Shown here: piece after piece, positions 1,464 to 27,900 of the stretch
How positions within the stretch are numbered: position 1 is the stretch's first letter
How the letters are laid out: every line of letters begins with the position of its first letter
NCBI GenBank assembly: GCA_965645245.1
Contig: OZ287080.1
Location: forward strand, 372,001 to 436,000
From: Massalongia carnosa
Lineage: Eukaryota
Direction: 5' to 3'
DNA: 64,000 nt
Position numbers and translations under genes: made by a program
Notes under the pieces: model-generated
What the model saw: the letters and a program-made list of their open reading frames with translations, nothing else
Database searches by the model: none
What the model was told of the DNA's origin: nothing

Positions 1464-1981
1464 CCCCCCCTCAAGTCCTGCCCGTACTTGTTTGCCTGTA
1501 GGTTCAACTGTGATTGACTTGTTATTCATGTGTAAGAACTTAACATGAGTGAGAGGTTTTGTCAGTCCGTCTGCTATCTTGTCTTCTGTTGAGACATAGG
1601 TGAGGTCGATTCGTTCCTCGAGGACCTCGTTCCGGATGAAGTGATGCTGAATGTCTATGTACTTAGTCCTAGCGTGTAAGAAAGACAGGATTGTTGGCAA
1701 GGGCTATGACGCTTTGATTGTCGCCTTTTAATGCGATGATGCCTTCTCCTCTTAACACATTTATCGTTGTGGATTCGTTGTCCATAGTCATCAATCCGAG
1801 TTCGATCATCAGTAAACGTAGCCATGTGGCCTCCTTTGCTGCTAAGGTAAGTGCCATATACTCTGCTTCAATTGATGATAATGCGACGGTTGTTTGTGTT
1901 GACTTGCGTTCTTCCTTGTCTCCGGCTCAGTCGGAATCGGAATATCCTTGTATTGTCAGGTCTCCTCCGCCGAAGGTGATA

Positions 1982-4266
1982 CAGTCAAACCTTCCTATAA
2001 CGATAGGGTTTGTCCACGCCGGCCAATCGTTATAGCCAGATTATCGTTATAGCCAGAATATATTATTTATAAGTTAAACATAACGGTTATGTGTGATGAT
2101 GAGATTCATAGACCTAAGAATCTATATAGCATGAAAATAAGTCTGAATAGACTGTTGCTGCAACTCCTGTGTGCCTCTGCCTCTGATATCCCGTCGATAA
2201 CGTGTCAAACATCGCAAAACCTCGCTGTTACCGTTGGCTTGTTGCTCCTCGTAGAGACAGAGTCTATTCAAAGCAGTAATAGCTTCTGCACTGCTCACTT
2301 TTGCCATCATCTCTTGCTCCTCATCTGTCTCATGGTCTCGTTCAATCAAAGGGTGACTATAACTGTCCAGAATCTGTTCAAATATCTCCTCCTCGTTGTC
2401 TTCCACCACCTCATCCACGAGATCCAAGAAATGATCTATCTTCATCGCCTCTGTGATGTGATTTTTGTCTTGTAGAGTCCGTATTGTAGCGTCCATCTGC
2501 TTGATCATCTCTCGCTGCTTGACATCATCTGCATCAGACTGCTCCTTCCACCCCAATTGTATAGCCACACTTTCCGAAACAGGTCCGTACTTTGGACCCA
2601 AAACTTTGGATTTCAACCAGCAATTGGCAATTGTAGTAGAAGAAACGTCTTCTTGCCAAGCAGCTACACTCCATCGAAGAGCTTGTAGAATATGAATTGA
2701 CTTTAACGGATCGCGATCCAAATCATATTCCGAACAGATGTAATTCAACCAATGCCGACGATAATGAGCTTTAAAGGCCTTGATGATGCCTTGATCAAGA
2801 GGTTGACAGACGCTTGTGGCGTTGGCAGGTAAGAAAAGTACCTAAAAAGTTGATTAATCGACGCTCTTGAAAATACACATCAGTCTAACGTACCTTGACG
2901 TTGTTCAGAGCAGTTTCATCTGCTTCTAAAAGCTTCAATCCGGCGTGATGGGATGAAAACCCATCTACTAGAAGCACTACATTGCGATCTGCGGTCAAAG
3001 CGTTGAACCATAGAAGATACTCTTTGAATATCTTGCCTGTCATCCATGCTTTTTTGTTATGACGCCAAGTCATCGGTAGGTTTTCTATCTTGACGCCAGA
3101 TCGAGCAAAACAGCGAGGCTTTGCTGCCGTTCCAATAAACCAGGGATCCATCTTGTGACCCACGACATTACAACAAAGATTGATGGTGATTCTAGACTTA
3201 TTCAACTTAACACCAGCTGAATCAGACACTGCCAAGGTACGATCCGGCGTCATTTTCCAGTATAGAGCTGATTCGTCCATGTTATAGATGTCTTCATTAG
3301 GATACGACTTTAGTTCTTCCCTGAGATTCACGAGTTCAAGCTCCACTGTTGCTTGATCTACCGCAGCAGCTTCGCCATGACGAACTACTCTATGAATCTT
3401 ATACCGCTTCTTGAAGCCGTCCAACCAGCCTGTTGAGAATTTGGGCTCCTCAACGCCTTGATATTGCGGCATTCGAGCCCAGAATCTTTTGGCCATGGCC
3501 TTCAATATATCACCTGTTATGGTGGCATGCTTGAGCTCCTGTTTCTGCTGCCATTCGTACAACGCCATCTCCAGATCTTCCCAATTTGCTGGCTGTCTCT
3601 TCTTTGATTGCGGATGAATGAGTCTTGAATCATCCAGATGATCATACTGATGAGACAAACAGACAGAAACCGTGGATTGAGACAGCTTACGACCAAACTG
3701 ATTTAGAAACCAGGCTATTAAGGAGTTGGAATTGGGCTTGGGATGATCCGCCTGATTATAGTGAGCTCGCAAGGCCTTTCTCTCAGCGTCAGTAATAGCT
3801 CGTCGTCGCTTGACGCCGGCGGAGGAGCTAATAGGTCTATTCAAGATGGACGACATGATGTTGTGAATACTCGGCGAATATCTTGGAAGTAGAAGGCTAG
3901 GTTATCAAATGGTAATACAACAAACGGGAACGACTTGGCTAATCAGCTTAACCAGAGCTTGATTTGTGACTGCTTCTATTACTACCTCTAGTAAAGAGTG
4001 ATTCTATGAAAATATAGCAGAATAGGCTCCCTATATATATACCTATCAAAAAACTACACTGCATTATTTAAGCAGGAAGTTCGGTCGAGGTGCAACCTGG
4101 CTTCTATGTATGTATAACGATACCCTACAAAAATTTTGAGATTTACTAACGATATCGTAATAGGGAGATTATCGTTATTTTGCACCTAAAATTGCCGGAT
4201 TTCTCCAACCAATCGTTGTGGAGCGATTATCGTTATAACCAAAATCGTTATAGGAAGGTTTGACTG
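1982..4266 (-). mobile_element. pogo/Tigger-like DNA transposon (Tc1/mariner superfamily), apparently complete
   Basis: 23-bp TIRs CAGTCAAACCTTCCTATAACGAT (1982-2004; reverse complement 4244-4266), TA duplication (1980-1981, 4267-4268); removing it restores host copia RT ...KDRGI|TFGG. Confidence 0.95.
2122..3856 (-). CDS. pogo/Tigger-type transposase (CENP-B-type HTH plus DDE_1), about 560 aa; exons 3856-2894 and 2841-2122
   Basis: HTH region (FSTGWLDGFKKRY), catalytic motifs YNMDES, LLVDGFSSH, QPLDQGII; a 52-nt GTACGT...TAG phase-0 intron joins the two ORF-track fragments without stops. Confidence 0.92.
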
Positions 4267-4649
4267 TACCTCTGTCCTTGGTAGCGCTAAGATATCTGAG
4301 AATGTGTTTGATCACTTTCATGTGTGTCCTGCTTGGATTTTTCGAAGGTCGACTGACTGGAGATGTTGCAAAAGCAATGTCGGGTCTTGTTTCTACATAT
4401 CATCACGAACATGATGAATGCAACAATGATTTGATATTGTCTAATGTCTTTGTCGGAGGCTTGGGATTCATTGGTGAAAAGACATTCTTCTCGCATGAGA
4501 GTATTGGCTGATTTTGCATTTTGCATATGAAATCTTTCTAGCACTTTCTCAATATAGGTTGGTTGAGATAGCTTGATGATTCTTTTAACTCGATCTCGTT
4601 CGACCTTGAGACCTAAGTAGTAACTGATCGGTCTCATGTCTATCAATTA

Positions 4650-4974
4650 TGTTGATTCATACTGTCTTGGCGTTATTTGGTTTTGCCACTATACCGAGGT
4701 TAATTGTCTTACCCGATATGACTTCACCTTACAATTGCATGGAACATTCTATGGGGATCTATAATTCCGCTATTACCGCACGACAAGGTCCCTGCTTTCA
4801 CGAAGACTCCATGACAGCCATATTCGGTGTATATATTTGGGCAAATAATCCCACCTCTTTCTTTCTTAGAAAGTTCAGTTAGTTAAGTTCAATTTAGTTA
4901 TAGAGCTTCAAGCGCAGCATATCAGCCTTTTCATTGATTCAGTGCAGCTCCCTCAGCCCCCATTTATTTCAACA
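4650..4974. mobile_element. Solo LTR inserted in the copia-1 RT region
   Basis: TGTTGA...TCAACA inverted ends; removing it rejoins LKLAFK to IDMRPISYYLG; degenerate 5-bp TSD (AATTA / ATTTT). Confidence 0.75.
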
Positions 4975-5382
4975 ATTTTGAATGCTAGCTTGAGTTGTCT
5001 CTTGACTTCGATGATCATTGGGGATCCCTTTGGATCTATCTATGATGTTCAGATCATCAACGAAAGAAGTAACGATGGGATCTTTTATGCCTTGAGGTGT
5101 GGCGAAGATTCTCGAGTCCTAATTTTTGCAGCAGAAAGGCAGAAAGTCGTTCATATCAGAGGCGAGGAGACCGTTTTAGATCATACAGGGCCTTGTTCAG
5201 TTTACATATCATGCGGGGTACGTCATAATCTATTGACATGTGAACATAGACGAATTGATCAATGAAGCCATTGAGGAAAGCTGTTATTATATCGAGTTGT
5301 TCGATATCAAGTCATGATAAGCAGCTAACGCGAATATCAGACGAAAAGTCATCGGCTTGATCACAGAAGCGAAGGTTTGATC

Positions 5383-5617
5383 CTTTGACTACAGGAGGCT
5401 TAGTAGCAGACTGAAGGCTTTGAAAAGGTGATTATATTGATGCTATCTAGAAGGAAGGAAGTTCGAGGGGGTCCTTCCTAGGACCTTATTGACCAGATTT
5501 TTTGCTATAGCAAACACCTCCTTAACCACCTTACCGCATTAGGATTCAGGGGGGCGGCCTATTGTAAGGCCGGCCTCCGATAAGGCTAGGTGGACCGTCG
5601 CTATTGTCAATCCAAAG
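5383..5617 (-). repeat. copia-2 3' LTR (235 bp)
   Basis: Direct repeat of 10184-10414; by eye about 9 substitutions and 2 indels; ends CTTTG...CAAAG. Confidence 0.92.
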
Positions 5618-8600
5618 CTCCCTCACAATAGGAAGGTTCCAACCTCCAGAAGTTTGAACCAACCTCATTCATTTGATGCCTCAGGGGCAGTGGTCATATT
5701 CATCTGATCGATGAACCTTCGAAAGGAGGTCCACGGTAGAGGCTTGGTTAGTCCATCAGCTATCATATCCTTAGTGGGCACATAGCTAATTTGAATAGCT
5801 TCCTCAGCGATCAACTCCCTCGTCTTATGATACTGGATATCGATGTGTTTGGCGCGAGGATGATTGATGGGGTTGTCGGCTAGCTTTATAGCCGCCTTAT
5901 TGTCAGCTTTCAGGGGGACGGGCCATTGACACCATATCCCAGGATTTCAAGGCATTCGCCAAGAAGACAGCCTCCTTGCCAGCATGGCACTCCCCCGTAT
6001 ACTCAGCCTCAGCTGTGGACGTGGCCACCGGGGCCTGGCGTTTCGTTGACCAGCTGATTGGTCCGCTGTTCAGGAGGAAGACATAGGCGGAAGTGGATCT
6101 CCTAGTGTCCAGACAGTCTCCATAAGAGGCATCAGTATAACCGATTAAATCGGTGTGAATACCCTCATAGGAGGATCCAAAACATAGGCCTAGGTCCCTT
6201 GTTCCAGCCAAATATCGAATGATTCTTTTTAAGATTGCGCCTTAATAGGGGGTAGGATTGATTGAATATCTACTGCAGCGATTCACCGAGTAAGCACGGC
6301 CGAGTCATACATGCTAACCACAATAGAGATCCAATAAGCATTTGGTATGCCTTGATCTCTCTATTTGTGGCCTCGTATATCTTGCCTTTATAGTAATTCT
6401 TGACCAGAAGAAGATTGGTCTCCATGGGTGTTTTGACGGATTTGCAATCGGACATGTCGACTGCATCGATGACCCGCCTAATGTGCGCCGATTGATGAAC
6501 ATATATTCTTCTATTTGGCCGGTCCCGAGTGACGTGCATCCCTAAATAGAAATTAATTGGTCCGAGATCCTTGATCCGGAATCGGTGAGACAATTCAGTC
6601 TTCAAGAGACTGATGTCCGAAAGAGAGGGTCCGATGAGAATTAGATCATCCACATAAATCGCTATTATGATGCCATTTTGCTGATGAATATAGACCGAAT
6701 GGTCCTCATCTACTCTCCTATAGCCTATGGTGATAAGATAGTCAGTGAGGGTGGAATACCATTCACGGGGGGCCTGCTTGAGACCATACAAGGCCTTCTT
6801 CAAGTGACAGGCATATCCCCCTGGTTTGACAAACCCATGGGGTTGTTCCATCCAGACCTCCTCTTTTAGAGGGGCCTCAAGGAAAGCGGTGACCACGTCG
6901 ATCTGTTCGACCTCCAGGTCATATCTAGCCGCTATAGCCAGCAGGGCTTTCCATGTCATTGATTTGACCACGCTAGCATAGGTTTATTATAGTCAATGCC
7001 TTCTATCTGGCAAAAACCTTTACCTACCCATCGGGCCTTATATCGAGATATTTCCCCATCCGGACCGAGTTTGGTGGTATAAACCCATCTACCAGGGAGG
7101 ATCTTCCTACCAGGTGGTGGAATTTCCAGGTCCCAGGTCCCGTTGATGGAATGAGATTCAACCTCCTCCTCTGATGCTCGGATCCATTCGGTAGCCTCTG
7201 AAGACTGAATGGCCTCCTTGTAGGTGCTGGGGACGGTGAGGTGGTTTAAGGAGGCCTTAAGAGCTCTCAATGCGAATCCCTTGTTACCTCCTTTCTTAGA
7301 CCATGAATCAGCTAATTTAGCATAATCGGGTCGAGAGGTGTTTCGAGATGGTCGGGATGATGATGTAGGTGGAGGTGGTGGTCTAGGTTCCTGAGGTACC
7401 TGTCCTGGTGCGGATTTGATCGACTGCTCGGAATTACTAGTAAATTGGCCTGTTAAAGGAGCAGTTGATGACCCAGAGGTCAGGTCGGCTACTTGTGAGT
7501 CCTCGGAATTTTCTGAACTTTCTGATTTATCATCGTCCTCTCTCCCGGTTCCTTCATCTGCAAATTCCGGTTCTAAAGGCCGTTTAGGGGGTTCCTCATT
7601 AACGAGTTCCTCCTCTTCATTGGCATAAATTATCACCCCTGATGTGTCCACCTCGTCGTCACCATTTCGGTAGAAGAATTGTAAGAAGCCATAGTCGTCG
7701 TCGTCACCATCCCCCGATTCTTCAACTGAAAATGATGCGGTCTCGTCCCATAGCACGTGTGCCGGAATGATGAGTTTCTTGGAGGTGAGGTCCCAAAGGC
7801 GATACTTGTTGTTGCCTTGGAGGCCAAGAAATCTGCATTTGATGCTTCTGTCGTCCAGCTTCTTCTTCTGAGGGTCAACATTGTAAGAGTATGCTACACA
7901 CCCGAAGATACGAACACCCGACAAGTCTGGCTGTCTGCCATACATCAGTTCGAAGGGTGTTTTATCACCATGCCTTGGACTCCTGTTTTTCAGGTAAGTA
8001 ACGTAGGAAATAGCCTCCCCCCATTGATTAGAAGGCATTCCACTGTCACTAAGAATCGCACGGGTTCGCTCGAAGAGGGTGCGAAAGCACCTCTCGACTA
8101 CCCCACTCTGATTCGGATTGTGTGGTGCTGTCGCATCCCACTCGATGTCATTGTCCTTCAAAATTTGTAAGGTCTGATGGCCAGCATACTCCCCTCCGTT
8201 GCCACTGTGCATAAGTTTGACCGGGTGTCCTCGTGTCTTCATCCATGCTAAATAGTCCTTTAAGACCTCTTTTAATTCGGATTTTTTCTTCAGAAGGTAA
8301 ATCACCGTCCAGTCAGTAAAATCGTCAATAAAGGAGGCAGCATACTTGACTCCCCCAATTGTCTGAGGTATGTCCCCCCGCCAGCAATGTCGGTATGTAC
8401 GATTTCACCGATGTTGGTGGCCTTTAGTCATTGAATTCTAACTGGATTTCGATGTTTTTTTCCTATTGCACATGATGGACACACGTTGATTTTAGGTTCT
8501 GCTGATTCACATTTATCAGCCTTAATTGCATCAATCCCAGTGGAGAGTTTAGCTAAAATCTTGACGTCCTTCATGTTGAGGTGGGCTAATCGTCGGTGCC

Positions 8601-10183
8601 ACACCGTCCACGAGGCATTGTCAGAGGATTTATAAGAGGTATGTAAGGTCTTTGATTGGTCCAGGTCGATCGAGTGTGTGGATCCAGAAGACTGACGAGT
8701 ACCAGTAAGACAGAGTTCTCAGTCAGGGGCAAAACATTCAGTTCTTCCTTTCCCTACTCGAAATTCGAATCCTTTCGACTCAATAACACCTACAGAAAAC
8801 AGATTGTATCCTGACTCGGGTACGTGATGGACATCCTTTAGGCACATAGCCTTTGATTCACCATCCACGTCTAGATATAGGGTAACAGATCCTATTCCTT
8901 CAATAATCATGTCAGTGGAGTTGGCCGTTTTTATGACCTTCCCTCTAATTAGTTGATAGTCATCAAATAGGTCTTTGTCATAGCAAATATGGACATCGGA
9001 AGCCGAGTCTATCCACCAGGTACGATCCTTATTTTGAGACTTATGGACGTTAGTAAAGAGGCTCTTGGTTATCATTGATCTTGGAACGAAGGCTGATTTG
9101 GACGAGGGATTAGATTTCTTCTTGTCCTTATCCTCCTTCTTATTCTTCACCAAGTTTTCCTTAGATGGGGCCGGTTTCCAGTTATCGGGCCGGTTGGTTG
9201 CATTCAGATAATAGCAATTGGTCTTGTTGTGGCCAGGACCGTCACAGTATTCACATTTTGACGAATTGGTATTTTTCTCCTTTTTCTCCTTTTTGCTCTT
9301 CTTATCTTCTTTCTTTTCCTTCCTGTTGAACTTAGCCGTCAGTGCCTTGTTGGATTCCTCTAAGTTATGTTGGCGGTTATCATGATCTATTGAGGCCATC
9401 ATCATCTCGTCAACGTCTAACTCCCTCATGTTTGCTCTTGCAGCCTCTACGAGACTGAAGATATAAGGTTCCAGGTCCGGTTTAAGACCAAGTCGGAACG
9501 AGATAGAGAGAACCCAGTCTGGTAACTTGTGACCGAGTTGTATCAACTGGGAGTGGGCCTTCTTTAGGTGTTCGGCGTACTCCTGAATGGATTTGAAATC
9601 TGATTGGCTAGCACGAAGTTGAAGGAAGGCCAGGTCTCTAGTGGCCAGACTTGTTGCTTTGTAATGCTTTTACAGTACATCCCAAATCTCTTTTGGGTCT
9701 TCCAGACCCTCTATATGGACTCGAGGGCCTGTTCCACAGTTTAAGTATATCTTGGTAGCTGCTTTACCCTTCGCTTGTCCCATTTCTTCTGTTTGTCCTC
9801 GAAGGCCTCCAGTTTGTCCTCCCACCGCTCAATAGTGCTTTGTGTCACTACTATGGCCGGGGTGGTGACTCCATCCTCTATCTTAGAAAGGGAGTCCACT
9901 GGTCGAGGCGGAGCATTAAGGGGTCGTAGTTCTTCCCCTTTAACTATATCCCACAGTTCGTCTAAACTAAGGAGGCCTTTCACCTCCTTCCATACATTGT
10001 AGTTCTTTTCACCTACCAATGGCTTTATCTGATAGGTTTCTAGTCCCATTGTTGAAGACTAAGCACCGACAGCTGAGGAGGTTCTTTGAGGCTTGATAAT
10101 TGGCCTACAAGGAAGAGGACTAGATATGTAGGAAGAGAAGAGATTATATAGCACTTCCCTAGCGTCTAGCCGGGCTCATAACC

Positions 10184-10414
10184 CTTTGAGTACAGGAGGC
10201 TTAGTAGCAGACTGAAGGCTTTGAAAGGTGATTATATTGATGCTATCTAGAAGGAAGGAAGTTCGAGGGGGTCCTCCCGAGGGCCTTATTGACCAGATTG
10301 TTTGCTATAGCAAACACCTCCTTGACCACCTTACCGGATTAGGATTCAGGGGGGCGTATCGTAAGGCCGGCCTCCGATAAGGCTAGGTGGACCGTCGCTA
10401 TTGTCGATCCAAAG
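10184..10414 (-). repeat. copia-2 5' LTR (231 bp)
   Basis: Direct repeat of 5383-5617; immediately followed on the minus strand by the PBS. Confidence 0.92.
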
Positions 10415-12090
10415 AGGTGCACATAGCACACAAAGGGTGGAAGGTTTGCATTCGTTGATAAAGAATGTGACAAATAGACATAATCGTCGGCCTCGCTTAG
10501 CTGCCTCCATACGAGTGTACCACCTCTAATACACCTCGTATGGAGGCAGCTAAGCGAGGCCGACGATTACACCTATTAAGGACTTGGTGCGGAAAATATG
10601 CGAAACAGTGCAAAGGGTTCAGGTTGATTACAAAACATCAATCAATCATCAACGAATCAACAATCCCCGGCTAATGAATAGAAGTGCGTTCAAAGACCTT
10701 ATAGGTTTAATAACTCATCATGCTATTGCCCTCATATCTAGAGGGTTGAATGCAGCTAAACTTTTAGTCGAAGATTTCAAGCAACAGGTTTCTTTTGGAG
10801 TTGAAGGGACTGCATTAATCGAATCAATCGGTGAGGATTGTATGCATGATTGTGATTTGTCTTCACGATACGGTCTTTCGTGCAGATGCTGATTGTATCA
10901 TTGCGTCATTGATGTTATCTTCATATCTATCTTCCTCATTCATCCCCGCTGGCTTTTCGATGGCCCGCCTTTTGTGATCTCGTGGAGAATGGTTTTCGAC
11001 CTCATCATAAGTTTCGCTGAGATGCTTCGGAGAGCAACTCACAGGAAGACAATAGAAGAGCAGGATGAAGAGGCGGATGAGGGGGGGAATGCTCAACAAA
11101 GACAAGAATATGAGTCGGAAGAGGAGATCGAGAAGGCAGTTGACAATAATACTGAGGATAGATTTCGTCGCGGGGGTATTGATTTGCTGCATGCGGCCGC
11201 ACATCAATCTATTGCTTTTCATAAATCAATATAAAATATTCATAGAAGGGAGGGATACGCTCGTGAATTCGCCAAATTCACTGCTATTTTCAATAAAAAA
11301 TGGCAGGATAAGGAGCTGGCGAGGTCACTTATTCCTACAACTTTCCTCGACGAAATCCGACCGAAGGACAACCTCATGTATAAAAAGAGTGAGAGTCGCC
11401 GGCGGGCTTACACTGGCCGTGAGGCAGCTGAGGCAGATGAAGCTAAGCAGCGACGTGCTAAACGTAAGGACTCGATTGAAGAAGGGAGGAGAGGAAGGCA
11501 TGAGAATGAATTGCGGACAGGCGATGAAGACAAGGATATGATTGATGATAAAAAACCCACGATGTCAACAAATCGATCGATGTAACGCGGCTAATATTCG
11601 GTATAGATTCCGGAGATGCTATCATCGTATCTGACGACGATGACCTGCAATATATAGCAACTCAGCCTATCCCCGATCCTCCACTTCCTCTGAATGAGAA
11701 TGATAATTTTATTCCTTCATCCCCGGCATCTTCTTTCGATTCATTTGAAGATATTGATGAAGTGCTGACGAAACATAGTCAAAAGGCCAAACGATTCCCT
11801 CCCCAAAAGCTTCTTTCCTTTATAGCCTCAGTCAAAAAAACATCCGCGCTAGCCAGCTATCATCCACATCGTCTGCAACAACAACACGAGGGTCACGGGG
11901 TGTGTTAGCCAAAAAACCGAAGGCTCGGTTGGAGTTAAAGTCTCAGCAGAGGGCCAATCAAGCGGCCAAACAAGCAAGGGCTGTGGGGAAAAATGCAGCT
12001 GCAAGAAAGGTTGCTAAGACTATGAAGCCTAGAAAGGATGATGTTTCGCAATTGAGTGATGCATTTTCGGAATTGAGATCATCGCAATGA
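10415..12090 (+). pseudogene. Mutator-like (MULE) transposase relic, C-terminal part
   Basis: GAHSTQRVEGLHSLIK (MULE catalytic-Glu motif, T.RVEG.H..[IL]K), SWIM-like CMHDCDLSSRYGLSCRC*LYHC, then charged low-complexity tail; stops present. 3' limit uncertain. Confidence 0.7.
10483..10567. mobile_element. 85-bp MITE with TA target duplication
   Basis: 33-bp perfect TIRs (ATCGTCGGCCTCGCTTAGCTGCCTCCATACGAG) around a 19-nt spacer, TA on both sides; excision restores the MULE frame N-R-H-T-P-I-K-D-L. Confidence 0.85.
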
Positions 12091-12772: not shown

Positions 12773-14694
12773 TTAAACAGTAGCCTCATGCTTCAGGTTT
12801 GATTCTCGGATCGGTACCATCTCCTCCATGCTCCCGCCTTCCCCGCTGTCCTTTTTGGAGGGCACCGCGCTGGCATACCACTTCCGGTGTTTCCACGGCC
12901 CCACCTCAGCTTCTCCACCAGGAGACACATTCTCAAGCCCGCGCACGCTGGAACTCATGGTCCCTCGGTTGCCGGGGGTGTTGCTATGGTCTGCAAGGCG
13001 GACGGAGCCTTTGAGATTGCCATGGTGGGAGTTGTTCGAGTTGGTGAACCGGGCTTGAACAGAACTCGAGATGTACTTACGAAGGAGCGGTCGCAGGTTC
13101 GGGAGGCAAACGCAGACTATGCCGAGACTACACTCATCGTTCAGCCAGAAGCCAGGTTCGACGAGACTCCCTGTTGGAGCGATCAGTTCTAGGCCGATGG
13201 GTAACTGAAGATAGAGCGGTTCGTACATGTGACATCGGGAAACTCCAATTTACCGATAAAGATGAGGCGAAGAATTCCTGCAACGCAAACGCTTGGAGGG
13301 CAAAGAGTAAGTGAGCGTAAATTAACCATGCTACAGGAGGCTTTTCTCGTTTCACTTACAACCCACCCATGAAAAACGTCGCAATCAGGGCTAACCGTTT
13401 AGACATGTTATCAAGCTGTATGGGCTAATGTGCAATATGAGTGAAAAGGAGTGGTGTGTATTGATCTATGGGAGGTCTAGGCTAGCTAACTGAGGGATAT
13501 CTCATAGGGGTTCGTGGGTCATGTGACCCCTAATCGCCTGACACATGTTCATCTGAAGGCCCCACAACCAGGGCAATGGCAGAATCAACATGAGGGCATC
13601 TGTGAACGTACTCGTGCCAGCAAAGGCAAAATACTCCATTTTGAGGTCATTGCAATGGGTGTTGGGAATCGTTTTGTCCCATGCAGCCTTGATAGGCGTG
13701 CAAATGAAGATGCTCGCGAAAAGGAATGTAATCAGCCAGGCGATCATCACAGCTCCGATGGCCATGGACATGCGGTGGAAGGTCCGTGCGCGAAACAAAC
13801 GATTGTAGGTACAGAGCAGGGAGACTTTGGAAGCGGTAATAGAAAGCGCGAAACACAACTCGCTGGTGATAATCAGCTGAAAGCATGCACGTTAGACATA
13901 GCCATTTTCGAATTGGAGCCATATATCACCTTATTAAATTGCGTAAACTCATAAACAGAAACAAACAACTGATGTTTCCCAAACCCGTACCGCGTAGCTA
14001 GAGGTTTGCAGTTGGATTAGCTTGACAAGTCGCGGATACGAAACGAACGAAAAGAACCAACCTGTCGATTCCAAGACGTTGAATGTTGTCTGGAAAACCT
14101 AACTTCATATAAGCAAGACGTTTGACACAGTTCGTTCCATATTTCCCTTACCAACGCAATCAGGATGAGAAAGTCGTCCCATCCATATGAGGCAGCGGAT
14201 ATCCTACGCGATATGACTCGTAGGATAATGGCTAGATATGCGAGTAGAGTTAAGACCAGGCACGTCGTGAGAATCTCATGGGCTCTAGAGTTTCCCAGCG
14301 AAGGAACAAGGTCGAGGCAGGTGTGGACAAAAAATTTTTCGGTGGCTATTGTAATATTCTTATCAGTTGAATCGGAGGATATAACGATTCTTTGTGCGTG
14401 TGGTGCTCAAGAGAGGTGGAGATCAATGAAGACAGACTCACCATCCTGGTCGGTAGAACTACACGTTGTGGTTATGGCGCCACCAACAAATAAAATGAGG
14501 CTAAATCCATTCGTCTCGCACACGCAAGTTAGATCACCACCACATCTCGCTTTTTCGATGCTTTGGGCGACAAGGAGTGCAGGACCTTGCTGAGGCACAT
14601 TAGTTGGCGCAATAAAGATTCCAAATGACTCCAGGGAACATACAGCACACGATGGCAATCCCGCCAAGCTGTCTGGGAATGTCGCATTGGCCAT
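12773..14694 (-). pseudogene. CFEM-domain PTH11-like GPCR (rhodopsin-domain integral membrane protein), disrupted by a solo LTR
   Basis: Degenerate CFEM (LAGLPSCA...C..DLTCVC...TTCSSTDQ), YGWDDFLILIAL, KVSLL..YNRLF, FICTPIKAAWD, TDALMLILPLP, LGIVCVCLPNLRPL; multi-exon; insertion at 13409-13543 brings an in-frame stop. Confidence 0.8.
13409..13543. mobile_element. 135-bp solo LTR
   Basis: Perfect 5-bp TSD CATGT (13404-13408, 13544-13548); ends TATCA (mutated TGTCA)...TGACA. Confidence 0.85.
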
Positions 14695-18804: not shown

Positions 18805-19398
18805 TCAAGAGATATCATTTCTTGAGCGCGGAATTTCACCAGAAGCTGACGCATATCCCAAATCTTCTCCAAGCTTTTTGCCGTTGACCATGATCGCTTG
18901 ACAGTCTTGCAGAACAAAAAGCATCCTCGCCCATTCCTTGTCGCTTGGATTCTTCCAGGCGTGCATCGTACCTCGTTGTACCGCCACATCTCCTCTATGC
19001 ATCAGTTTAGACTCCCCAGAGTCCAGGAGCATCTCCATTGTCCCTTCGAGCACCACGCCATAATCAAGGCTCTGAGTGCGATGCATCAAAGGCTTGGATC
19101 CCGGGCCGAAGTCGACCATGCGGCATACGGTACCGGTTTGATTCACCAAGCCAATTGTGCCGGCAGCCATGAGCTCATCGTGAGTGCTTATGTCTTGGTC
19201 ATCTTTGAGCGAGGCTGGAAAGCCGGAGGTGGTATAGACGACATTAAAGCCGACTGTATCCTCCGCAATACTGGTCCATGAACCTTCTCGCGTGGACCGC
19301 ACCACCGCTTTGCCCGTCTCATTGTGGCCAGTTAAATAGTGCGTCACTCCTGGCAGATCCGACACCTGGCCCGGATTTGAGGGACGAGCACTTGGCAT
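18805..19398 (-). CDS. Cupin-domain protein, single exon
   Basis: Metal-binding cupin motifs MHRTQSLDYGVVLEG and GDVAVQRGTMHAWKN. Confidence 0.9.
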   Translation of the reverse strand: MPSARPSNPGQVSDLPGVTHYLTGHNETGKAVVRSTREGSWTSIAEDTVGFNVVYTTSGFPASLKDDQDISTHDELMAAGTIGLVNQTGTVCRMVDFGPGSKPLMHRTQSLDYGVVLEGTMEMLLDSGESKLMHRGDVAVQRGTMHAWKNPSDKEWARMLFVLQDCQAIMVNGKKLGEDLGYASASGEIPRSRNDIS

Positions 19399-20215
19399 GA
19401 TGTAGACACTGGATGGCCGGTTAATTTTCGATGTGGAGATATTGCGAAAAGCCTTGGTGGAAGATTTGGGGGATTGTTATCTCAGCAGGAAATTTTTAAC
19501 GCCAAGCAGCATCCGTGCTCAACAAATCGCTCGGATTGCGCTGCATAAACGGTTGAGTGGCTCGCATACAGAGTATCGGAAGGTTTATCTGATCCATAAC
19601 GTAAGAAACGATCTTTCTGGCCCAACGAACCCCGCTCACCATTCCAGGGGCGCGACCCTAGAGCGCCGTGGAGAGATCATGGAGTATAGAGCACTATGTG
19701 CTTCGTAGAAGTCGTACACTGTACTCTGTACAGTGTACAAAAGATTCTTCCATGCCTTATCGTCTTCTAGAGTATAGGCATCTCGCCAAATGCCTCCCAA
19801 CCAAAGACTTTTCATACTATTATTGATTGGCTAGGCTTGATGGTGATGACCCGAGGTCTATCACCAGGATCGACACACACCAGTTGTTCGGAAGTCAGTG
19901 CTTTCAATCTTCCAATCCACTCAACCCCGAGAAACGGGAGAGAAGCGGGAGAAATGTCAGGAACAGAGCGAATGGCTTCCCCATGCGTATCCTCTCTAAT
20001 TGGTTAGTTAAACCCTTCGTTAGGCCGCACGAATAGTTGGCTTTGCTTAGTCTCCATCGCATTGTTGGCAAAGGCGGGGTTGAGATCGAGCAATAAAAAG
20101 AAAGAATGATAGCCTCGAAAACACTCATAACGGGAACCATGGACCGGCATCTCTACCAATTACCTCTCTCACTTGACTCACCTCTCGCTGCGACGGTCGC
20201 GGAACATTCAACATC

Positions 20216-21784
20216 ATGGACAAGGCCAAGATGAAAGCACTCATCGGCGAAATGTCCGGAATGAAGCCTCCTCCAGGAGTGATTCAGAACTTGGAGCATC
20301 CGCCGACCATGCAGAACTGGAATCTATTGTGCCAAGTCATCTGTCTGTCGTTGAGTACGATCTGCGTTTTGATCCGCATGTACACCAAGATTTTTATCAC
20401 CAAATCTCACGGATGGGAAGACTGTATGCTCCGGGGGCTTCGTTTGACCATCTCATGCTGGAACTAACAGGGAATCAGATACTTGCTTTGTCGCATGGGT
20501 GAGCGAAGCTCCTAGAGGGACGGGTCTTATCTCAAAACCTGCTTACATGTGGAATCTGCCTTAGCTAGGCCTCTTGGCCTATTCTGGAATGCAACTCTTG
20601 CCTATATTTACACGGTTTCCCGGTGTCCACCTATGGAACGTCAAGATAAAGTACCTTGAAGAATGGGGCAGGGTGAGTCTTGATGAAACCCCCCCGACCT
20701 TGAGAACTTCAAGTGCTGACACTAATACGCCGATGCCATAGTTGTCAAGTATAATTGAAATCCTTTACACCCCCACCATCTTCCTCGCCAAGCTATCCAT
20801 TCTCCTGTTGTACCTCCGAATCTTCGTCACAGCCTATCGGTCGAAAACGTATTATGCCATTCATTTCATCATTTGGACCAATCTCCTCTTCTATCTAGCC
20901 AACTTACCCGCGGAGATCTGGGCATGCGTACCCCGAGAGAAGATCTGGGATCTCACCGTTGACGGCCACTGCATCAATAACGAGGCGCTAATCGTGACGG
21001 GGGGTGTCATTAACGTCGTCTCGGATTTTGGGATCTTACTTATTCCAATCGTATCAATCGGCCGGCTTCAAATGCCCCTGATCAAAAAAATGGGTATATC
21101 CGCGGTGTTCGCAACGGGCTTCTTGCAAGTGCTCCGTCTCTCGGGTCTAAACAAGTAATAAATAGCTGATTCTCTCCAGCGCTTGCATCTCCAGCGTCAT
21201 GCACCTTGTGACTGCAGTGCAAATGATGGGCAACGCCGACATCACTTACTATTTGTTCCCTCTTGCGTTATGGACGTAAGAAACCCCCTTTTCCGCTTTC
21301 GTGACCAAAATGGGACCTTTCGTGCTCACAGCGCCTAAGCACCGCCGAACTCGCCTCCGGCGTTATCTGCAGCTCTCTCCTTACCATGCCGCATTTCTTC
21401 CGCCACATCGCACCCAAAATCGCCAGCAAGCTCTCCTCCAGCCGGAAAACCCCCAGCGGCGGCAGCGGCTCCAACAGATTTGTGGCCTTCGCTCCCGGAA
21501 CCGCAGGAGCGGCGGGGGCCAGACGGGCTTCGAAACCACCACCCCACTGGCACGATTTGTACGATACGACCACCAGCCGGCAAGACACGTACACAGAGCT
21601 GAGCGATAGCAACGACTGGCATACACCGCCCACGACGACGATTCATGGTGGGGCGCAGACGGCCGGCGCTGTGGAGAAAGGGGCATGGGGAGCGCCGGTG
21701 GTGGTGATGTCGGACGAGAAGGCGATGGAGGCGGGCATCGTGAAGACGGTAAGGGTGGAGCAGTGTCCTGTCTCGCGCGTTTAG
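20216..21784 (+). CDS. PTH11-like integral membrane protein (rhodopsin domain, no CFEM), multi-exon
   Basis: PPPGV..N..HP N-terminus, LIRMYTK...GWED, AKLSILLLYLRIF, WACVPREKIWD, NVVSDFGILLIP, ELASGVICSSL; GT-AG introns. Confidence 0.85.
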
Positions 21785-23985: not shown

Positions 23986-24981
23986 CTACTTCTTTTCAAA
24001 CCCTGCCCGCCATGCATTGGCGTACACGTCCACCCCTTGCAAAAACCCTCTCCGCGACGGTGCCCATCCCAACAACGTCTTGGCCTTCCCCGAATCCCCC
24101 ACCACGCTCGCTCCCACCGCCTCGCTGACCACATCTCCCTCCTTGGGCCCTACTAACTCGACCTTCCCGTGGAACCCAAACACCCTCGCCGCACCCTCGA
24201 TGATGGCGCGCACACTCTCGACCTGGCTCACAATGTCGAAGACGGGGTAGACGCCCGTTCCAGCCAATTGTGGGAGCTTCTCGATCACGGCCTGAATGCC
24301 TGACGCTATGTCATCCACGTGGGCGAGGCCAACGGTGCCGAGGGGGTCCAGGTGGATTTTTACTTTTTCCGGCTGAGGCTGGGCAGTCGCAGCATGAAGT
24401 GCGGTGGACAAAGGCCCTGTCCAGATACCCGCGACTCCGCCGAAGGTAAGAGCAGCGCGCACAACCGCCGTGTCGAGCACGGTCTGGATATCGCGCGAGA
24501 GCACCAAACGTTCGATTTCCGGGCGCCAGCTCACCATGGTGACGGGCGGGTTTTTGGCCTCGGAGGTACCGACAAATGGATCCTGATCGCTGACAGCCGC
24601 GTGGCTGGACCCATGGAGCCACATACCGCTGACATAGACATAACCAAGCTTAGGGCCCGCGGGCACGCCCACCTTGCTGTATTTTTCCAGGCGCTTTTTG
24701 GCCGCATCGGCGATGAGATGGAGCAAATTGGCACTGTCACCATAGACGGCGGCGGCGTCGACGACGACGCTGATCTCGGGGTGGTGATCGAGGAGATCGA
24801 GGAAGGCTTTGGGGTCTTGGACGGAGCCTAGGACAGGGATAATTTCCTGAACAGCGAGGGATTGGGCTTTTGCAGACGAGCGAGCAAGGCCGTAGACAGT
24901 ATGATTGCCGCTGCGTACGAGAGACTGAGCCAGTGCGTTACCAATGGTACCTGTGGCGCCAAGGACGAGGATATGAGGCAT
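23986..24981 (-). CDS. NAD(P)-dependent epimerase/dehydratase family protein (extended SDR)
   Basis: N-terminal Rossmann motif ILVLGATGTIG, GLARS, YVSGMWLHG, HVDDIA, KAKTLLGWAP; 331-aa single ORF. Confidence 0.88.
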   Translation of the reverse strand: MPHILVLGATGTIGNALAQSLVRSGNHTVYGLARSSAKAQSLAVQEIIPVLGSVQDPKAFLDLLDHHPEISVVVDAAAVYGDSANLLHLIADAAKKRLEKYSKVGVPAGPKLGYVYVSGMWLHGSSHAAVSDQDPFVGTSEAKNPPVTMVSWRPEIERLVLSRDIQTVLDTAVVRAALTFGGVAGIWTGPLSTALHAATAQPQPEKVKIHLDPLGTVGLAHVDDIASGIQAVIEKLPQLAGTGVYPVFDIVSQVESVRAIIEGAARVFGFHGKVELVGPKEGDVVSEAVGASVVGDSGKAKTLLGWAPSRRGFLQGVDVYANAWRAGFEKK

Positions 24982-27900
24982 GATGGGCTGGGTGTGGCTG
25001 GAGATTGGACGTGAAATATAGAGATGCTATCTGCAATGCCTCAGTTAGGTAATGTAGGTCGAGCGGGTTGGAGGAGACTTGTAATGGCGCGTGCCTGCCC
25101 TCCTTATATTCACTACGCTCAGCAGCTCAGAAAATCCCCCCACTTCATTTTCAAGCCCTGCCTCTTCCGCGGTATCCCGAGCCGCGAAAAATTCACGTCA
25201 TCCTGTGGCTGCCTTGCTCTAACAGAAGAAGCACACTATGCAAAGATGGGACCAGATGGACCGTTTTGCATGAGCCATGAGCTTTGGTGCATTATGTACG
25301 TAAGAATAGTCTTTGGCTGATATCAATGTTGGATTTCCTAATGGCCGGGACATCCCGACTGGAAGCGACCTCTAGACTATCTTTATGCTAGCTTAATAAA
25401 GCGAACCTATAGCAGTTAGCTAGAGAGTTAGGCTCTGTCGGTTAAGCAGTCACGGCAGTTTAAGCCGATCGGTGTTTTATGAAAGCGAAGCTCCGCGAGT
25501 TTCTAAGCCACGCTAACGATAGCTCGTTCCGTGGCTCCGTCTTCCGAGTTGCGTTTACACTCGGTGCTTAAGAGCCAGGTACGCCCGTAAGTTCATAACC
25601 TTCTAGTCAATCTGTATAGATCACAACATTCTAGAGTAGCTTTCCGAGAATGCCAAAGCAGATTCTACAGACCGTTTCTCCGTGGATCTTGTCTAAAACC
25701 TTTAGGGTACAACTTATAAATGCAGCCAAGCGTCACCCGCCATCAATATCAATTCGTACTTTAGCTTGAGTTCGGCAATGAAGCGAGCTGAGTGGCCACG
25801 AGGAACTTTTTCGTAGAGAAATCGTTAGCATTGTCAATGTCTTCACGGATAGAGTTGGTGGGGTGCCTCATCGTTCAGCTTTGGTGGCAGACTTTAAGAC
25901 AGTTCAAGACTGACCAGATGGAAGAACCCAACTTTGCAACAGCGCCATTGCCACCACATCAACGATGATAGCATAATATGAAGCCCGCAATAGCTGCATG
26001 CCTCCTTTAAAACAGTGTTGGTATTCTTATCAGGCCATAAAGGCTAACTAGGCTGCAAGTCAATGGCCTCTTTGCAATCTTTCTTTTGAGCCGTGGAAGG
26101 AAAAATTTTAATTTCAACCGTCTGATTCTCTAATCCACTGTATTTTTGAAGATCAAATGTCTCTTTACATTGACACATGTTACAGCAGCTTTGAACGTGG
26201 AAAAAATGGACAATCCTTGAGTTGTTGGTTCTATTAACAAACGAAGCAGACATATTCCTTCAAGGTTATATTCTGCCACCCTATGAAGCAGGACTATGGC
26301 GGCCTGCAGGGTTTGGAGCCAACACGTATGTTCAATAACCGTTCAAACAAAAGTCCGATCATCGTTCGTTATTAGTCTTCTCATCAAACGGCTGAGGGTC
26401 AGCTGTCTTGACATCTGAAGGCGTCGTGTGACATTGCATGGTTCTTGCTTCATGGCCATAAGAAGATCCGAGCATTCAAGTTTAGATTTCTATTCCTCTA
26501 ACGTTGTATCGAGCTACACGCGCTAGACGCCCATACACGTGATGTTAATTTTCAAAACTTATGAGTTGAAAGTCTCATCAATTAATGCATAGGACTAATC
26601 AAGACTCGTGGCCCTGCAGCTACAAAAGGTGTCTCAGACTCTTACAGCGCCTGATTGAAGCACAGAACTCGCAGGGTCGGTGGAGGTAAGTAGAGTGGTT
26701 GTTGAAAGGTTGAAACTCCTACCTTATCAGGGTTAGCCAGGTCTAGATTTCTTATTATACCACAAACTTGAAGCGGGATGGGCAAGAAACTCACCATCGG
26801 CGGTTTAATGCTGGCATTTAATAGGCAATTATCTGTAAGTGAGTCGGTGAAGGGCCTTTCAACCTTACATCAACACTTTGGAGAAACAACAGAACATGGC
26901 GACCTTATACTGCAAGCTCAGACATTTAAATGCACAATCGTTTTCGCTATACAAAATTATACCGATCCACTTGGCGTTCCATCTCGTACTTACTCACCCA
27001 CCGTGTTTGAACCTTGGAGTCTTTTGTGAGTATGAATCCATTCCACCGCTCTAAGCACATATAAAGTTGTAAAGATCATTCCCCGCAGTGCATCAGAAAA
27101 AATGCCTCAGGAACCAGCCTAGGACTTATTCACTGGCGTTGCGTTGGCATTTGTCATGTCTTGCAATGCCATCGAAGAAATCCTGTACCTTTAAGATACG
27201 ATCCAGTCTACAAAATGTACAATGCCTTCTGTTCAGTTCTCAGGCGGCGAAGATATCAATGTATTTGGGTGATACAGGTTTTAACGGAGACTAAACATGC
27301 GAACAGCATTAAAGAAAAAGTCTAAGTTACCCGGTTCTCTTCCTGCGTCGCCAAAAAGACCACCAACGTTTAAATGTCGGAAGATGTATCGAATGAAATC
27401 ATGCCACTGAAAAAAATTAAAATAAAAACTGGGTCACACCTGAACAGCAAAAGGGCACTGAAACACTCGCCCTTAAGGAATTGAAACCCCGAGCAGGTAC
27501 GGCACGTCTAGTGATCGCCTCAGTGTTAAAAACTGGCTTCATGACCACTAGACCACCTCATTCGGCTGTCAATATCACTTTAAGCACAATTATAGTATAT
27601 ATTCTCTGATAATCTGTTTTCGAAATAGAACTAGGTAATCATGGGTATATTCTAAGTGTTTGAATGGTGAACAAATCTGAAGTGACCAGGACCCCGATTA
27701 AATCTAGCTTACCAGCATTCCGATATCCACAACGAGCTTAAGTAGAGGGCGCTCGTCTGCCTTTATACACATAGTCATACATACATACACGGAACCACGG
27801 AATGCTTCCTGGTTAACTGAAGGAAGAATAACCGGAACGGATCCAGGTATACTTATGTGTTTGCACGTTTCAGAAGGAAGAAAGCGGAGATGGGAAGTAA

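Follow-up and report, generated by a model that had tools for sequence, protein, structure and literature searches.

In the lichen-forming ascomycete Massalongia carnosa, a dead member of a multi-copy Ty1/copia family indicates that the family probably integrates with CT...AG termini (5'-CTTTG...CAAAG-3'), a reading drawn from sequence. The copy, a defective element of 5032 bp recognized by its LTR pair and Pfam domains, lies on the minus strand at 5383..10414 of the 64-kb stretch of DNA that we analysed (the window). The evidence comes from one DNA copy and two protein-level copies for the 5' end, and from one junction and an argument from the reading frame of the host sequence for the 3' end.

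The element has a coding region enclosed by the long terminal direct repeats that characterize the Pseudoviridae, and the tRNA-complementary primer-binding site (PBS) beside the 5' LTR and polypurine tract (PPT) beside the 3' LTR expected of Ty1/copia elements (Table 1). The TG...CA termini of this group are absent, with CTTTG...CAAAG at all four LTR boundaries. TG...CA termini are a usual rather than a strictly defining feature of Ty1/copia, and exceptions are on record. The two LTRs are 94.5% identical over 236 columns (E 4e-100), nine substitutions and two indels apart when aligned on the minus strand, and are the sole long repeat pair in the whole 64 kb; self-BLAST, word-7 blastn and nhmmer found no further LTR copies in the window.

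Table 1. Features of the element and its flanks (window coordinates)
Feature	Position	Strand	Basis or remarks
Flank: older, decayed copia (host copia-1), 3' part	4217..5382	-	RT frame begins at 5382
3' LTR	5383..5617	-	235 nt; start CTTTGGATTG, end TAGTCAAAG
Polypurine tract GAGGGAG	5618..5624	-	flush with 3' LTR, direct reading
RNase H region, two frames	5626..6295	-	tblastn of P0013 residues 328-548
Reverse transcriptase	6270..6983	-	RVT_2 positions 55-243, E 8e-45; 96% identical to P0013
Integrase core, SH3-like domain, linker, RT start	6956..8404	-	rve, SH3_retrovirus, RVT_2 positions 1-53
Integrase N-terminal zinc-binding region	8428..8718	-	gag_pre-integrs, E 3e-9
Gag C-terminal part with CCHC knuckle, and protease-region beta-barrel	8719..9669	-	Pol_BBD, E 4e-19
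Gag, N-terminal ORF piece	9741..10058	-	ORF listing; no Pfam match
Primer-binding site GGTTATGAGCCCGG	10170..10183	-	flush with 5' LTR
5' LTR	10184..10414	-	231 nt; start CTTTGGATCG, end TACTCAAAG
Flank opposite host copia-1	10415..10446	.	unrelated to host copia-1 by search

Pfam domains on the minus strand follow the Ty1/copia order (Pol_BBD, gag_pre-integrs, rve, SH3_retrovirus, RVT_2), and the coding region is broken into seven ORF pieces by six or more stops or changes of frame. The relatives P0003 and P0007 cover 9765-8353 by tblastn, and the CCHC knuckle in the translation of the second gag piece reads CEYCDGPGHNKTNC. P0013 is 96-97% identical to the element over most of the RT-RNase H region and 88% at the C-terminal end; it represents a cluster of 32 member sequences, and the family is therefore multi-copy. 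The second catalytic Asp of the integrase is replaced by Gly in this copy and is retained by all eight aligned relatives; judged from these residues, the integrase of this copy is broken. RIP was ruled out as the cause of decay, with TpA/ApT of 0.60-0.79 and (CpA+TpG)/(ApC+GpT) of 1.12-1.48 in four transposon segments.

An earlier note on this DNA, made from the sequence alone, had described LTR copies that are common from CTTTG to CAAAG, and both the minus-strand alignment and the reading of the junctions bear this out. Similarity at the LTR start begins exactly at CTTTGG, the outer junction being GCACCTCTTTGGATCG (LTR from base 7) and the inner one GTGAGGGAGCTTTGGATTG (LTR from base 10). At the 3' end it stops at CAAAG plus one more common G, the inner junction being TACTCAAAGGGTTATGAGCCCGGC and the outer TAGTCAAAGGATCAAACCTTC, with the LTR running through base 9 of each. 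CTT and AAG are thus retained at the two outer junctions of this copy, while TG and CA lie three bases inside both ends. The chance of three additional common bases at each outer junction is about 1/4096, if equal base use is assumed.

Direct reading also upheld the placing of the PBS directly after CAAAG and of the PPT directly before CTTTG. Bases 10183..10172 (GGTTATGAGCCC) adjoin CAAAG, and the 14 bases 10185..10172 (AGGGTTATGAGCCC) perfectly match the 3' end of oPA1732, an antisense probe for initiator tRNA-Met of yeast rather than of the fungus itself (PMC11230868). By this match, the PBS corresponds to the anticodon region of initiator tRNA-Met rather than to the tRNA 3' end. The window holds no tRNA genes, including any tRNA-Met with which the PBS could be compared. 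In host copia-1, the PPT GAGGGGGGG is directly followed by a canonical TGTTGAAT, providing an internal control for the flush PPT-to-LTR geometry.

The flanks bear on both the history of this copy and the identity of its 3' end. The note held that the RT of host copia-1 resumes at the outer edge of the element. GAT CAA ACC does open its RT frame (DQTFASVIKPMT..., beginning DQTF) at 5382, but the frame cannot be said to resume, as the host lies to the left of the element alone: in tblastn of the whole window and Pfam searches of 89 ORFs between 10.3 and 25 kb, no copia sequence appeared right of 10414, ruling out a continuation of host copia-1 there. The flank on that side contains a second copy of the 9-mer GAAGGTTTG. 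Residue 95 of P0013 aligns to the Asp codon at 5382-5380 and is preceded by Tyr. The motif is present in 30 of 95 copia matches, with Tyr or Phe just before it in all 30; since a TG...CA model would put Lys (AAG) at this site of the host RT, AAG is excluded as host sequence.

No target-site duplication was detected when exact matches of 5-9 bp were sought with the boundaries shifted by up to 8 in either direction, and matches of 3-4 bases between the flanks were at the level expected by chance for 2023 comparisons. Given the missing duplication and a host that flanks just one end, recombination between two insertions probably produced this copy. Because its flanks belong to different sequences, the lack of a duplication here is uninformative for the family.

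Other copies were sought in protein databases as short ORFs running from a flank into the LTR start; at the 3' end, LTR-coded peptides are only 16-22 residues long. P0217 and P0218 read from flank into LTR and end HYVLEVPFFGLTIATVHLALSEAGLTISRPPES and VEYSKVMFFGLTIETVHLALSEAGFTIGRPPES, respectively, and the window's own flank-to-LTR ORF ends FVCYVHLFGSTIATVHLALSEAGLTIRPPES; the three flanks are mutually unrelated. The flanks of P0217 and P0218 next to the LTR are not purine-rich, which identifies these as outer junctions. Phe (TTT) is retained in each; were the LTR to begin at TG, this would be expected by chance at about 1/16 per copy. The preceding codon is Phe (TTY) in both and can end in C, although the two are known as protein alone and are thus only compatible with the first C. 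A third sequence, P0219 (GEVLVREFRLTLLPPACHLALSEAGLTIGRPPES), follows a stretch rich in purine codons and looks like the inner PPT junction of a decayed copy, an ambiguous case; its frame implies one base fewer between PPT and TTT, so that the C before TTT would not be universal. Variable sequence in place of CTT, which the note had named as evidence against its reading, was found at the 5' end in neither of the two informative copies, P0217 and P0218, at the protein level. The exact 21-base LTR pattern had no match in a bacterial and archaeal DNA collection, and a profile scan of that collection for integrase relatives gave 25 pattern matches, none of them confirmed.

These junctions could also be accounted for without joined CT...AG ends. 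The family might be a canonical TG...CA family whose three-base spacers, one from PPT to TG and one from CA to PBS, are normally trimmed by the integrase, this copy being an unprocessed cDNA that end joining captured at a chromosome break. The position of TG and CA three bases inside both ends fits such a spacer, retroviral integrases are described as removing di- or trinucleotides to expose CA (PMC3395085), and capture would also explain why there is no target-site duplication, why the flanks come from different sequences and why the 5' half of the host is lost. We nonetheless consider it unlikely, since P0217 and P0218 keep TTT at the outer 5' junction next to unrelated flanks, so that capture would have had to occur repeatedly, and since both ends of the copy are complete to the last base. 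End joining usually nibbles ends, and in half-tRNA-primed elements such as copia the PBS is flush with the LTR, both of which count against capture. End processing of Tnt1 is reportedly treated by Feuerbach et al. (1997), and the Ty5 primer is said to be treated by Ke et al. (1999).

Alternatively, the true ends could be TTTG...CAAA, the outermost C and G being flank or spacer bases that are common by chance. The frame of P0219 implies no C between PPT and TTT, protein-level data cannot separate C from T before TTT, and the G may be part of the PBS, which has three Gs before TTATGAG. We regard these shorter ends as slightly less probable even than capture: C and G stand at both outer junctions in the window (about 1/16 by chance), the Tyr or Phe codon expected in the host cannot end in the G that precedes GAT, and without C and G the 5-base inverted repeat is incomplete. 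Very improbable, in our view, is an ordinary TG...CA element whose outer CTT and AAG reflect chance flank matches or a target-site preference. A single genomic copy is visible as DNA, and the T that precedes the LTR in three of three outer junctions hints at such a preference. However, to the chance of about 1/4096 for the window copy must be added a further 1/16 each for P0217 and P0218, and AAG would place Lys at a host RT site that is invariably Tyr or Phe (30/30). In addition, a single insertion flanked by a 5-bp duplication cannot show ...CTT upstream together with AAG... downstream, as C and G would then fall on the same middle base. The CT...AG copia lineage proposed in the note thus gains partial support: the outer junctions keep CTT and AAG, P0217 and P0218 keep TTT, and the host RT frame excludes AAG.

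If the family does integrate with CT...AG ends, minus-strand synthesis would start from a cleaved half initiator tRNA, in the manner of Drosophila copia and yeast Ty5, and plus-strand synthesis from the purine tract adjoining the first LTR base. Priming flush with the LTR on both strands could then yield a finished blunt cDNA ending CT...AG. The integrase would join the terminal AG-3'-OH at both ends with no trimming to the CA three bases inside, which could explain why CTT and AAG survive at the outer junctions. Two family members most likely recombined, deleting the sequence between them to give the present copy, in which case its two outer junctions derive from two separate insertions.

The DNA ends joined by the family integrase are thus probably unusual. 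The integrase core can be aligned with the Ty1 integrase chain 7z0h_W (E 1e-13), and the motif that follows the catalytic Glu reads ERCFRT. Phe or Tyr occupies the site three residues past this Glu in the element and its 11 closest motif-bearing relatives, and Asn occupies it in Ty1 (ERLNRT) and in 34 of 35 more distant copia integrases. This aromatic residue is the sole lead to a possibly altered specificity. As the cited work on Ty1 describes it, the integrase requires a terminal CA under physiological conditions, and AC ends lower activity more than 100-fold (PMC8487063, PMC2939329), so that an AG end would demand a real change in the enzyme. The element resembles Ty1 in that blunt cDNA ends would be joined without 3' processing, as described for Ty1 (PMC8487063), but differs in having Phe in place of the Asn of Ty1 and, on the present reading, AG ends in place of CA. 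It is conceivable, though on balance doubtful, that the whole fungal branch with Phe or Tyr for Asn (the element and its closest relatives) has switched from CA-3' to AG-3' at both cDNA ends.

The element shares its superfamily and domain order with Drosophila copia and yeast Ty5. The ends of both are TG...CA within TGTTG...CAACA. Of Ty1-like terminal repeats, this one is reported to be the most conserved (PMC4139406). The inverted repeat of the element is equally 5 bases long, and only the two outermost positions at each end differ, complementarily (CT and AG). Its PBS, flush with the 5' LTR, resembles those of copia and Ty5 in being complementary to the anticodon region of initiator tRNA-Met, a likeness of complementarity only; copia is reported to use a "half-tRNA" and Ty5 an internal cleavage product (PMC5371799).

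Non-canonical termini have been reported for plant Copia elements, including Tos17 (TG..GA), TARE1 (TA..CA), AtRE1 (TA..TA) and Rosaceae families with TGTT and AACA (10.1101/137141, PMC5659011). Such elements are described as having short LTRs (272 bp on average) and as neglected by TGCA-based annotation (10.1101/137141, PMC5659011); LTR_retriever handles seven non-TGCA motifs, of which, according to its authors, only the first T is invariable (10.1101/137141). The present element is likewise small (5.0 kb), with short LTRs (231/235 bp) and termini other than TG...CA. In contrast to the plant elements, which retain one or more of the canonical halves or bases and have documented duplications of 4-6 bp, it differs at all four terminal bases, has C as its first base and G as the joined 3' base, is changed symmetrically at both ends, resides in a fungus, and is known from one copy without a duplication. 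Among titles and abstracts on the terminal dinucleotides of fungal copia LTR retrotransposons, we found no report of CT...AG ends, and literature listings showed no paper on fungal non-TGCA elements as a topic.

Since the copy is dead, little of practical consequence follows for this locus. The probable CT...AG family is an addition to the non-TG/CA kinds of copia already known from plants. No feature common to retroviral and LTR-retrotransposon DNA ends is more conserved than the terminal CA, and Ty1 integrase is reported to depend on it both in the test tube and in yeast (PMC8487063, PMC2939329). If our reading is right, the list of non-canonical termini would extend beyond plants and beyond the never-varying first T (10.1101/137141), and boundary refinement anchored on TG/CA would shift each end of such elements by three bases and then fail the duplication check. 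Should the switch be branch-wide, every member would be mis-bounded by TG/CA-based annotation, and the branch would be unprecedented among LTR retrotransposon lineages in keeping none of the four canonical terminal bases. An amplified copia family that joins AG-3' ends would also be a natural enzyme/substrate pair for finding the integrase residues that read the DNA end.

We think it likely that the family of the defective Ty1/copia retrotransposon at 5383..10414 (minus strand) integrates with CT...AG ends, the best explanation of its boundaries. A direct-repeat search and self-BLAST turned up a single long repeat pair across the 64 kb, the 3´ LTR at 5383-5617 and the 5´ LTR at 10184-10414 (94.5% identity, E 4e-100), and more sensitive searches with either LTR as query added no further copy within the window. 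The two LTRs, read on the minus strand, are 9 substitutions and 2 indels apart. Their likeness starts precisely at CTTTGG (outer junction GCACCTCTTTGGATCG, inner junction GTGAGGGAGCTTTGGATTG); in the inner sequence, the purine tract GAGGGAG (7 bases) directly abuts the LTR. It stops at CAAAG plus one common G (inner junction TACTCAAAGGGTTATGAGCCCGGC, outer junction TAGTCAAAGGATCAAACCTTC), and the first and last five bases of the LTR form a perfect inverted repeat. The repeat pair, the CTTTG/CAAAG edges and the flush purine tract, all pointed out in an earlier note, are real, and their coordinates exact. Each LTR also holds a perfect palindrome of 16-18 bases around GTTTGCTATAGCAAAC (10299-10316 and 5501-5516). 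The PBS stretch AGGGTTATGAGCCC (14 bases, 10185..10172) matches, base for base, the 3´ end of oPA1732, a published antisense probe for yeast initiator tRNA-Met (PMC11230868). Because this probe extends 5´ into the T-arm side of the tRNA, the match is to the anticodon region and not to the tRNA 3´ end; the cited passage of another study describes a 'half-tRNA' priming Drosophila copia and an internally cleaved initiator tRNA priming Ty5 (PMC5371799).

Between the LTRs, Pfam matches on the minus strand run through Pol_BBD (protease region), gag_pre-integrs, rve, SH3_retrovirus and RVT_2, a succession in Ty1/copia order, and a CCHC knuckle is legible in the translated gag piece. The coding sequence is broken up into seven ORF pieces. 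Alignment with P0013, an intact RT-RNase H from another copy that is mostly 96-97% identical (88% at the C-terminal end), reveals three frame changes in the element, and in its integrase a Gly replaces the second catalytic Asp, which 8/8 aligned relatives have. The window copy is therefore dead.

No DNA copies of the element were found in the prokaryote collection, and gene-caller ORFs in protein databases served as a stand-in for the DNA of other copies. One minus-strand frame enters the window 5´ LTR from the flank, reading ...FVCYVHLFGSTIATVHLALSEAGLTIRPPES and then a stop; its boundary codons are CTC TTT GGA, so that the third position of the first codon is the C of CTTTG, and the next codon, TTT, encodes Phe. 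Such flank-to-LTR ORFs are impossible at the inner junction, since a TGA lies just upstream. A word-indexed search for such ORFs gave one match at E ≤ 10, the database protein P0217, among three candidates, and a profile search of 1.84 billion representatives, with P0217 itself as a row of the query, gave P0217, P0218 and P0219 at E ≤ 0.001. P0217 ends HYVLEVPFFGLTIATVHLALSEAGLTISRPPES and P0218 ends VEYSKVMFFGLTIETVHLALSEAGFTIGRPPES, and their upstream parts show no kinship with each other or with the window flank. The residues adjoining the LTR are Val-Pro-Phe and Val-Met-Phe, respectively; as these codons are not purine-rich, the two proteins mark outer junctions, belonging to 5´ or solo LTRs. 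The Phe (TTT) is retained in both, with a chance of about 1/16 each if the LTR started at TG, and in both the codon before it is Phe (TTY), compatible with a final C. The base directly before the LTR is T, and the second base before it a pyrimidine, in 3/3 outer junctions (window 10415-10416, P0217, P0218), which may reflect a target preference or chance. P0219 ends GEVLVREFRLTLLPPACHLALSEAGLTIGRPPES; just upstream come successive codons for Glu, Lys, Gly and Asp, corresponding to purine-rich DNA, and its Val-Arg-Glu fits GTG AGG GAG. We read it as the inner PPT junction of a putative decayed copy with several frame changes, which would be uninformative on the outer ends. In its frame the purine tract and TTT would be one base closer together, and thus the C of CTTTG is not universal.

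The 3´ end can be read at a single junction, the window's own, against host copia-1, the older decayed copia adjoining the element at left. The host frame opening at 5382, DQTFASVIKPMTFRL..., matches a copia-type RT before decaying into many stops. Residue 95 of P0013 (Asn, in GIDYNQTYASV) aligns with the host Asp at 5382, so host copia-1 lacks the preceding Tyr. The motif T[FY][AS].. occurs in 30/95 copia relatives (in the other 65 it was not covered or not matched), and the residue three before its Thr is aromatic in 30/30 (Tyr 17, Phe 13). If the integrated ends were instead the TG and CA three bases inside, AAG would be host sequence and place a Lys at this position, and a lone G is impossible too, since neither Tyr nor Phe has a codon ending in G; AAG is thus part of the element. 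That TG...CA reading would put CTT and AAG in both outer flanks by chance, a very improbable coincidence expected about once in 4096, and a single insertion with a 5-bp duplication is incompatible with both, as this would require its middle base to be both C and G.

A serious alternative is that the integrase, retrovirus-like, trims three extra cDNA bases per end, and that the window copy is untrimmed cDNA captured at a break. Retroviral integrases, according to the cited passage, take off di- or trinucleotides (PMC3395085), and such capture would account both for the absent duplication (none at boundary offsets of ±8 bases and lengths of 5-9) and for the lost half of host copia-1. However, at least TTT is kept in 2/2 informative extra junctions, which makes repeated capture unlikely. 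The earlier note's proposal of a lineage with CT...AG ends is supported, by the TTT kept in other copies and by an AAG excluded from the host frame; for the first C, the protein sequences of P0217 and P0218 are compatible with it, and the 3´ end comes from one junction. Its statement that host copia-1 resumes at the outer edge was wrong, as there is no copia sequence right of 10414: in tblastn of the whole window, the seven ORF pieces matched there at E > 0.5 only, and Pfam on 89 ORFs at 10.3-25 kb found only fungal-rhodopsin-domain, cupin and epimerase matches. The 5´ half of the host is therefore lost, and the element is flanked by two different sequences. Recombination between two insertions probably produced the window copy. 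RIP is not invoked, since RIP indices are unremarkable.

The flanks hold several further features. The 9-mer GAAGGTTTG lies in both, at 5373-5381 and 10438-10446 (3 bases from the left end, 23 from the right; estimated chance roughly 0.01). Read on the minus strand, the right flank has MQTFHPLCAMCT, a very short stretch resembling the RT motif QTF.P at the start of the left flank; tblastn of the window did not detect this likeness. A near-perfect 105-base palindrome (10473-10577, about 60 bases from the element) would fold as single-stranded DNA into a hairpin whose stem spans 39 bp (-50.6 kcal/mol, z -16.3; 0/200 shuffles as good). The plus-strand ORF 10554-10889 has no Pfam match; in its nearest ESM Atlas cluster (score 0.94, only 148 shared features), 53% of members have a SWIM zinc finger, a weak lead to a Mutator-like transposase remnant. 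The element, host copia-1 and the Tc5/pogo-like transposon within host copia-1 form a nest of three next to a P450 gene; among the 120 P450 relatives listed of 867, all named ones are lichen-forming Lecanoromycetes (72-81% identity). At its own end (minus strand, ~1472-1453), host copia-1 has the purine tract GAGGGGGGG followed directly by TGTTGAATATG, a canonical Ty1-like LTR start flush with the tract, this LTR being known from its start alone.

Features neighbouring the element (window positions)
Feature	Position	Strand	Remarks
Cytochrome P450 gene	3-1106		867 relatives at E ≤ 1e-30
Host copia-1 RNase H part	1464-1896		beyond RT part
Tc5/pogo-like DDE transposon	2122-3901	minus	HTH_ABP1_N, HTH_Tnp_Tc5, DDE_1 over two ORFs; inside host copia-1
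Fungal rhodopsin domain gene or gene piece	12776-14406	minus	PF20684, E 8e-29
Cupin ORF	18808-19476		between the two PF20684 genes or pieces
Fungal rhodopsin domain gene or gene piece	20742-21155	plus	PF20684, E 7e-32
Epimerase-family ORF	23989-25026		beyond both PF20684 genes or pieces

For Ty1 integrase, the cited passages report that a terminal CA is required at physiological metal concentrations, that activity on AC ends is reportedly more than 100-fold lower in vitro, and that in vivo, three sequenced clones from AC-ended fragments had no junctions of the integrase type (PMC8487063, PMC2939329). A changed integrase is therefore to be expected in a family that amplifies with AG-3´ ends, and the altered end recognition put forward in the earlier note is plausible as a putative trait of this family. 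The motif after the catalytic Glu is ER-x-F/Y-RT in the window and in 11/11 closest motif-bearing relatives (among P0001-P0014, matched database proteins; 10 Phe, 1 Tyr), and the same position is Asn in 34 and Ile in 1 of the 35 more distant motif-bearing matches; the count covers 46 proteins of 95, with four spurious second matches dropped (P0007, P0046, P0050, P0066). In a clade profile, the aromatic position falls on Asn in the ERLNRT of Ty1 integrase (7z0h_W, E 1e-13) and on a His in the second match, 3kkr ('Integrase', E 6e-6), which we take to be a lentiviral integrase entry. The position presumably corresponds to HIV-1 Asn155, near the terminal nucleotide. The possible tie between Phe/Tyr and changed end recognition is a lead, not evidence.

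Non-TG/CA termini are known, mostly from plant Copia elements with short LTRs: the cited part of one study lists Tos17 (TG..GA), TARE1 (TA..CA) and AtRE1 (TA..TA), with seven such motifs in 42/50 plant genomes (89% Copia, mean LTR 272 bp), and its authors, those of LTR_retriever, give the first T as the sole invariable base (10.1101/137141). Rosaceae have TG..TT and AA..CA families, as the cited passage states (PMC5659011). Unlike these plant examples, as far as the cited parts list them, the element has all four bases changed and a final G. Non-TG/CA Copia elements as such are thus already known, and what would set this family apart is the four-base change with the final G. The most conserved Ty1-like terminal repeat is given as TGTTG...CAACA (PMC4139406, cited passage); CTTTG...CAAAG is of equal length and differs only in the outer two positions per end, complementarily. 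A complementary change at both ends has the look of a symmetric enzyme-substrate pair under selection, and not of decay.
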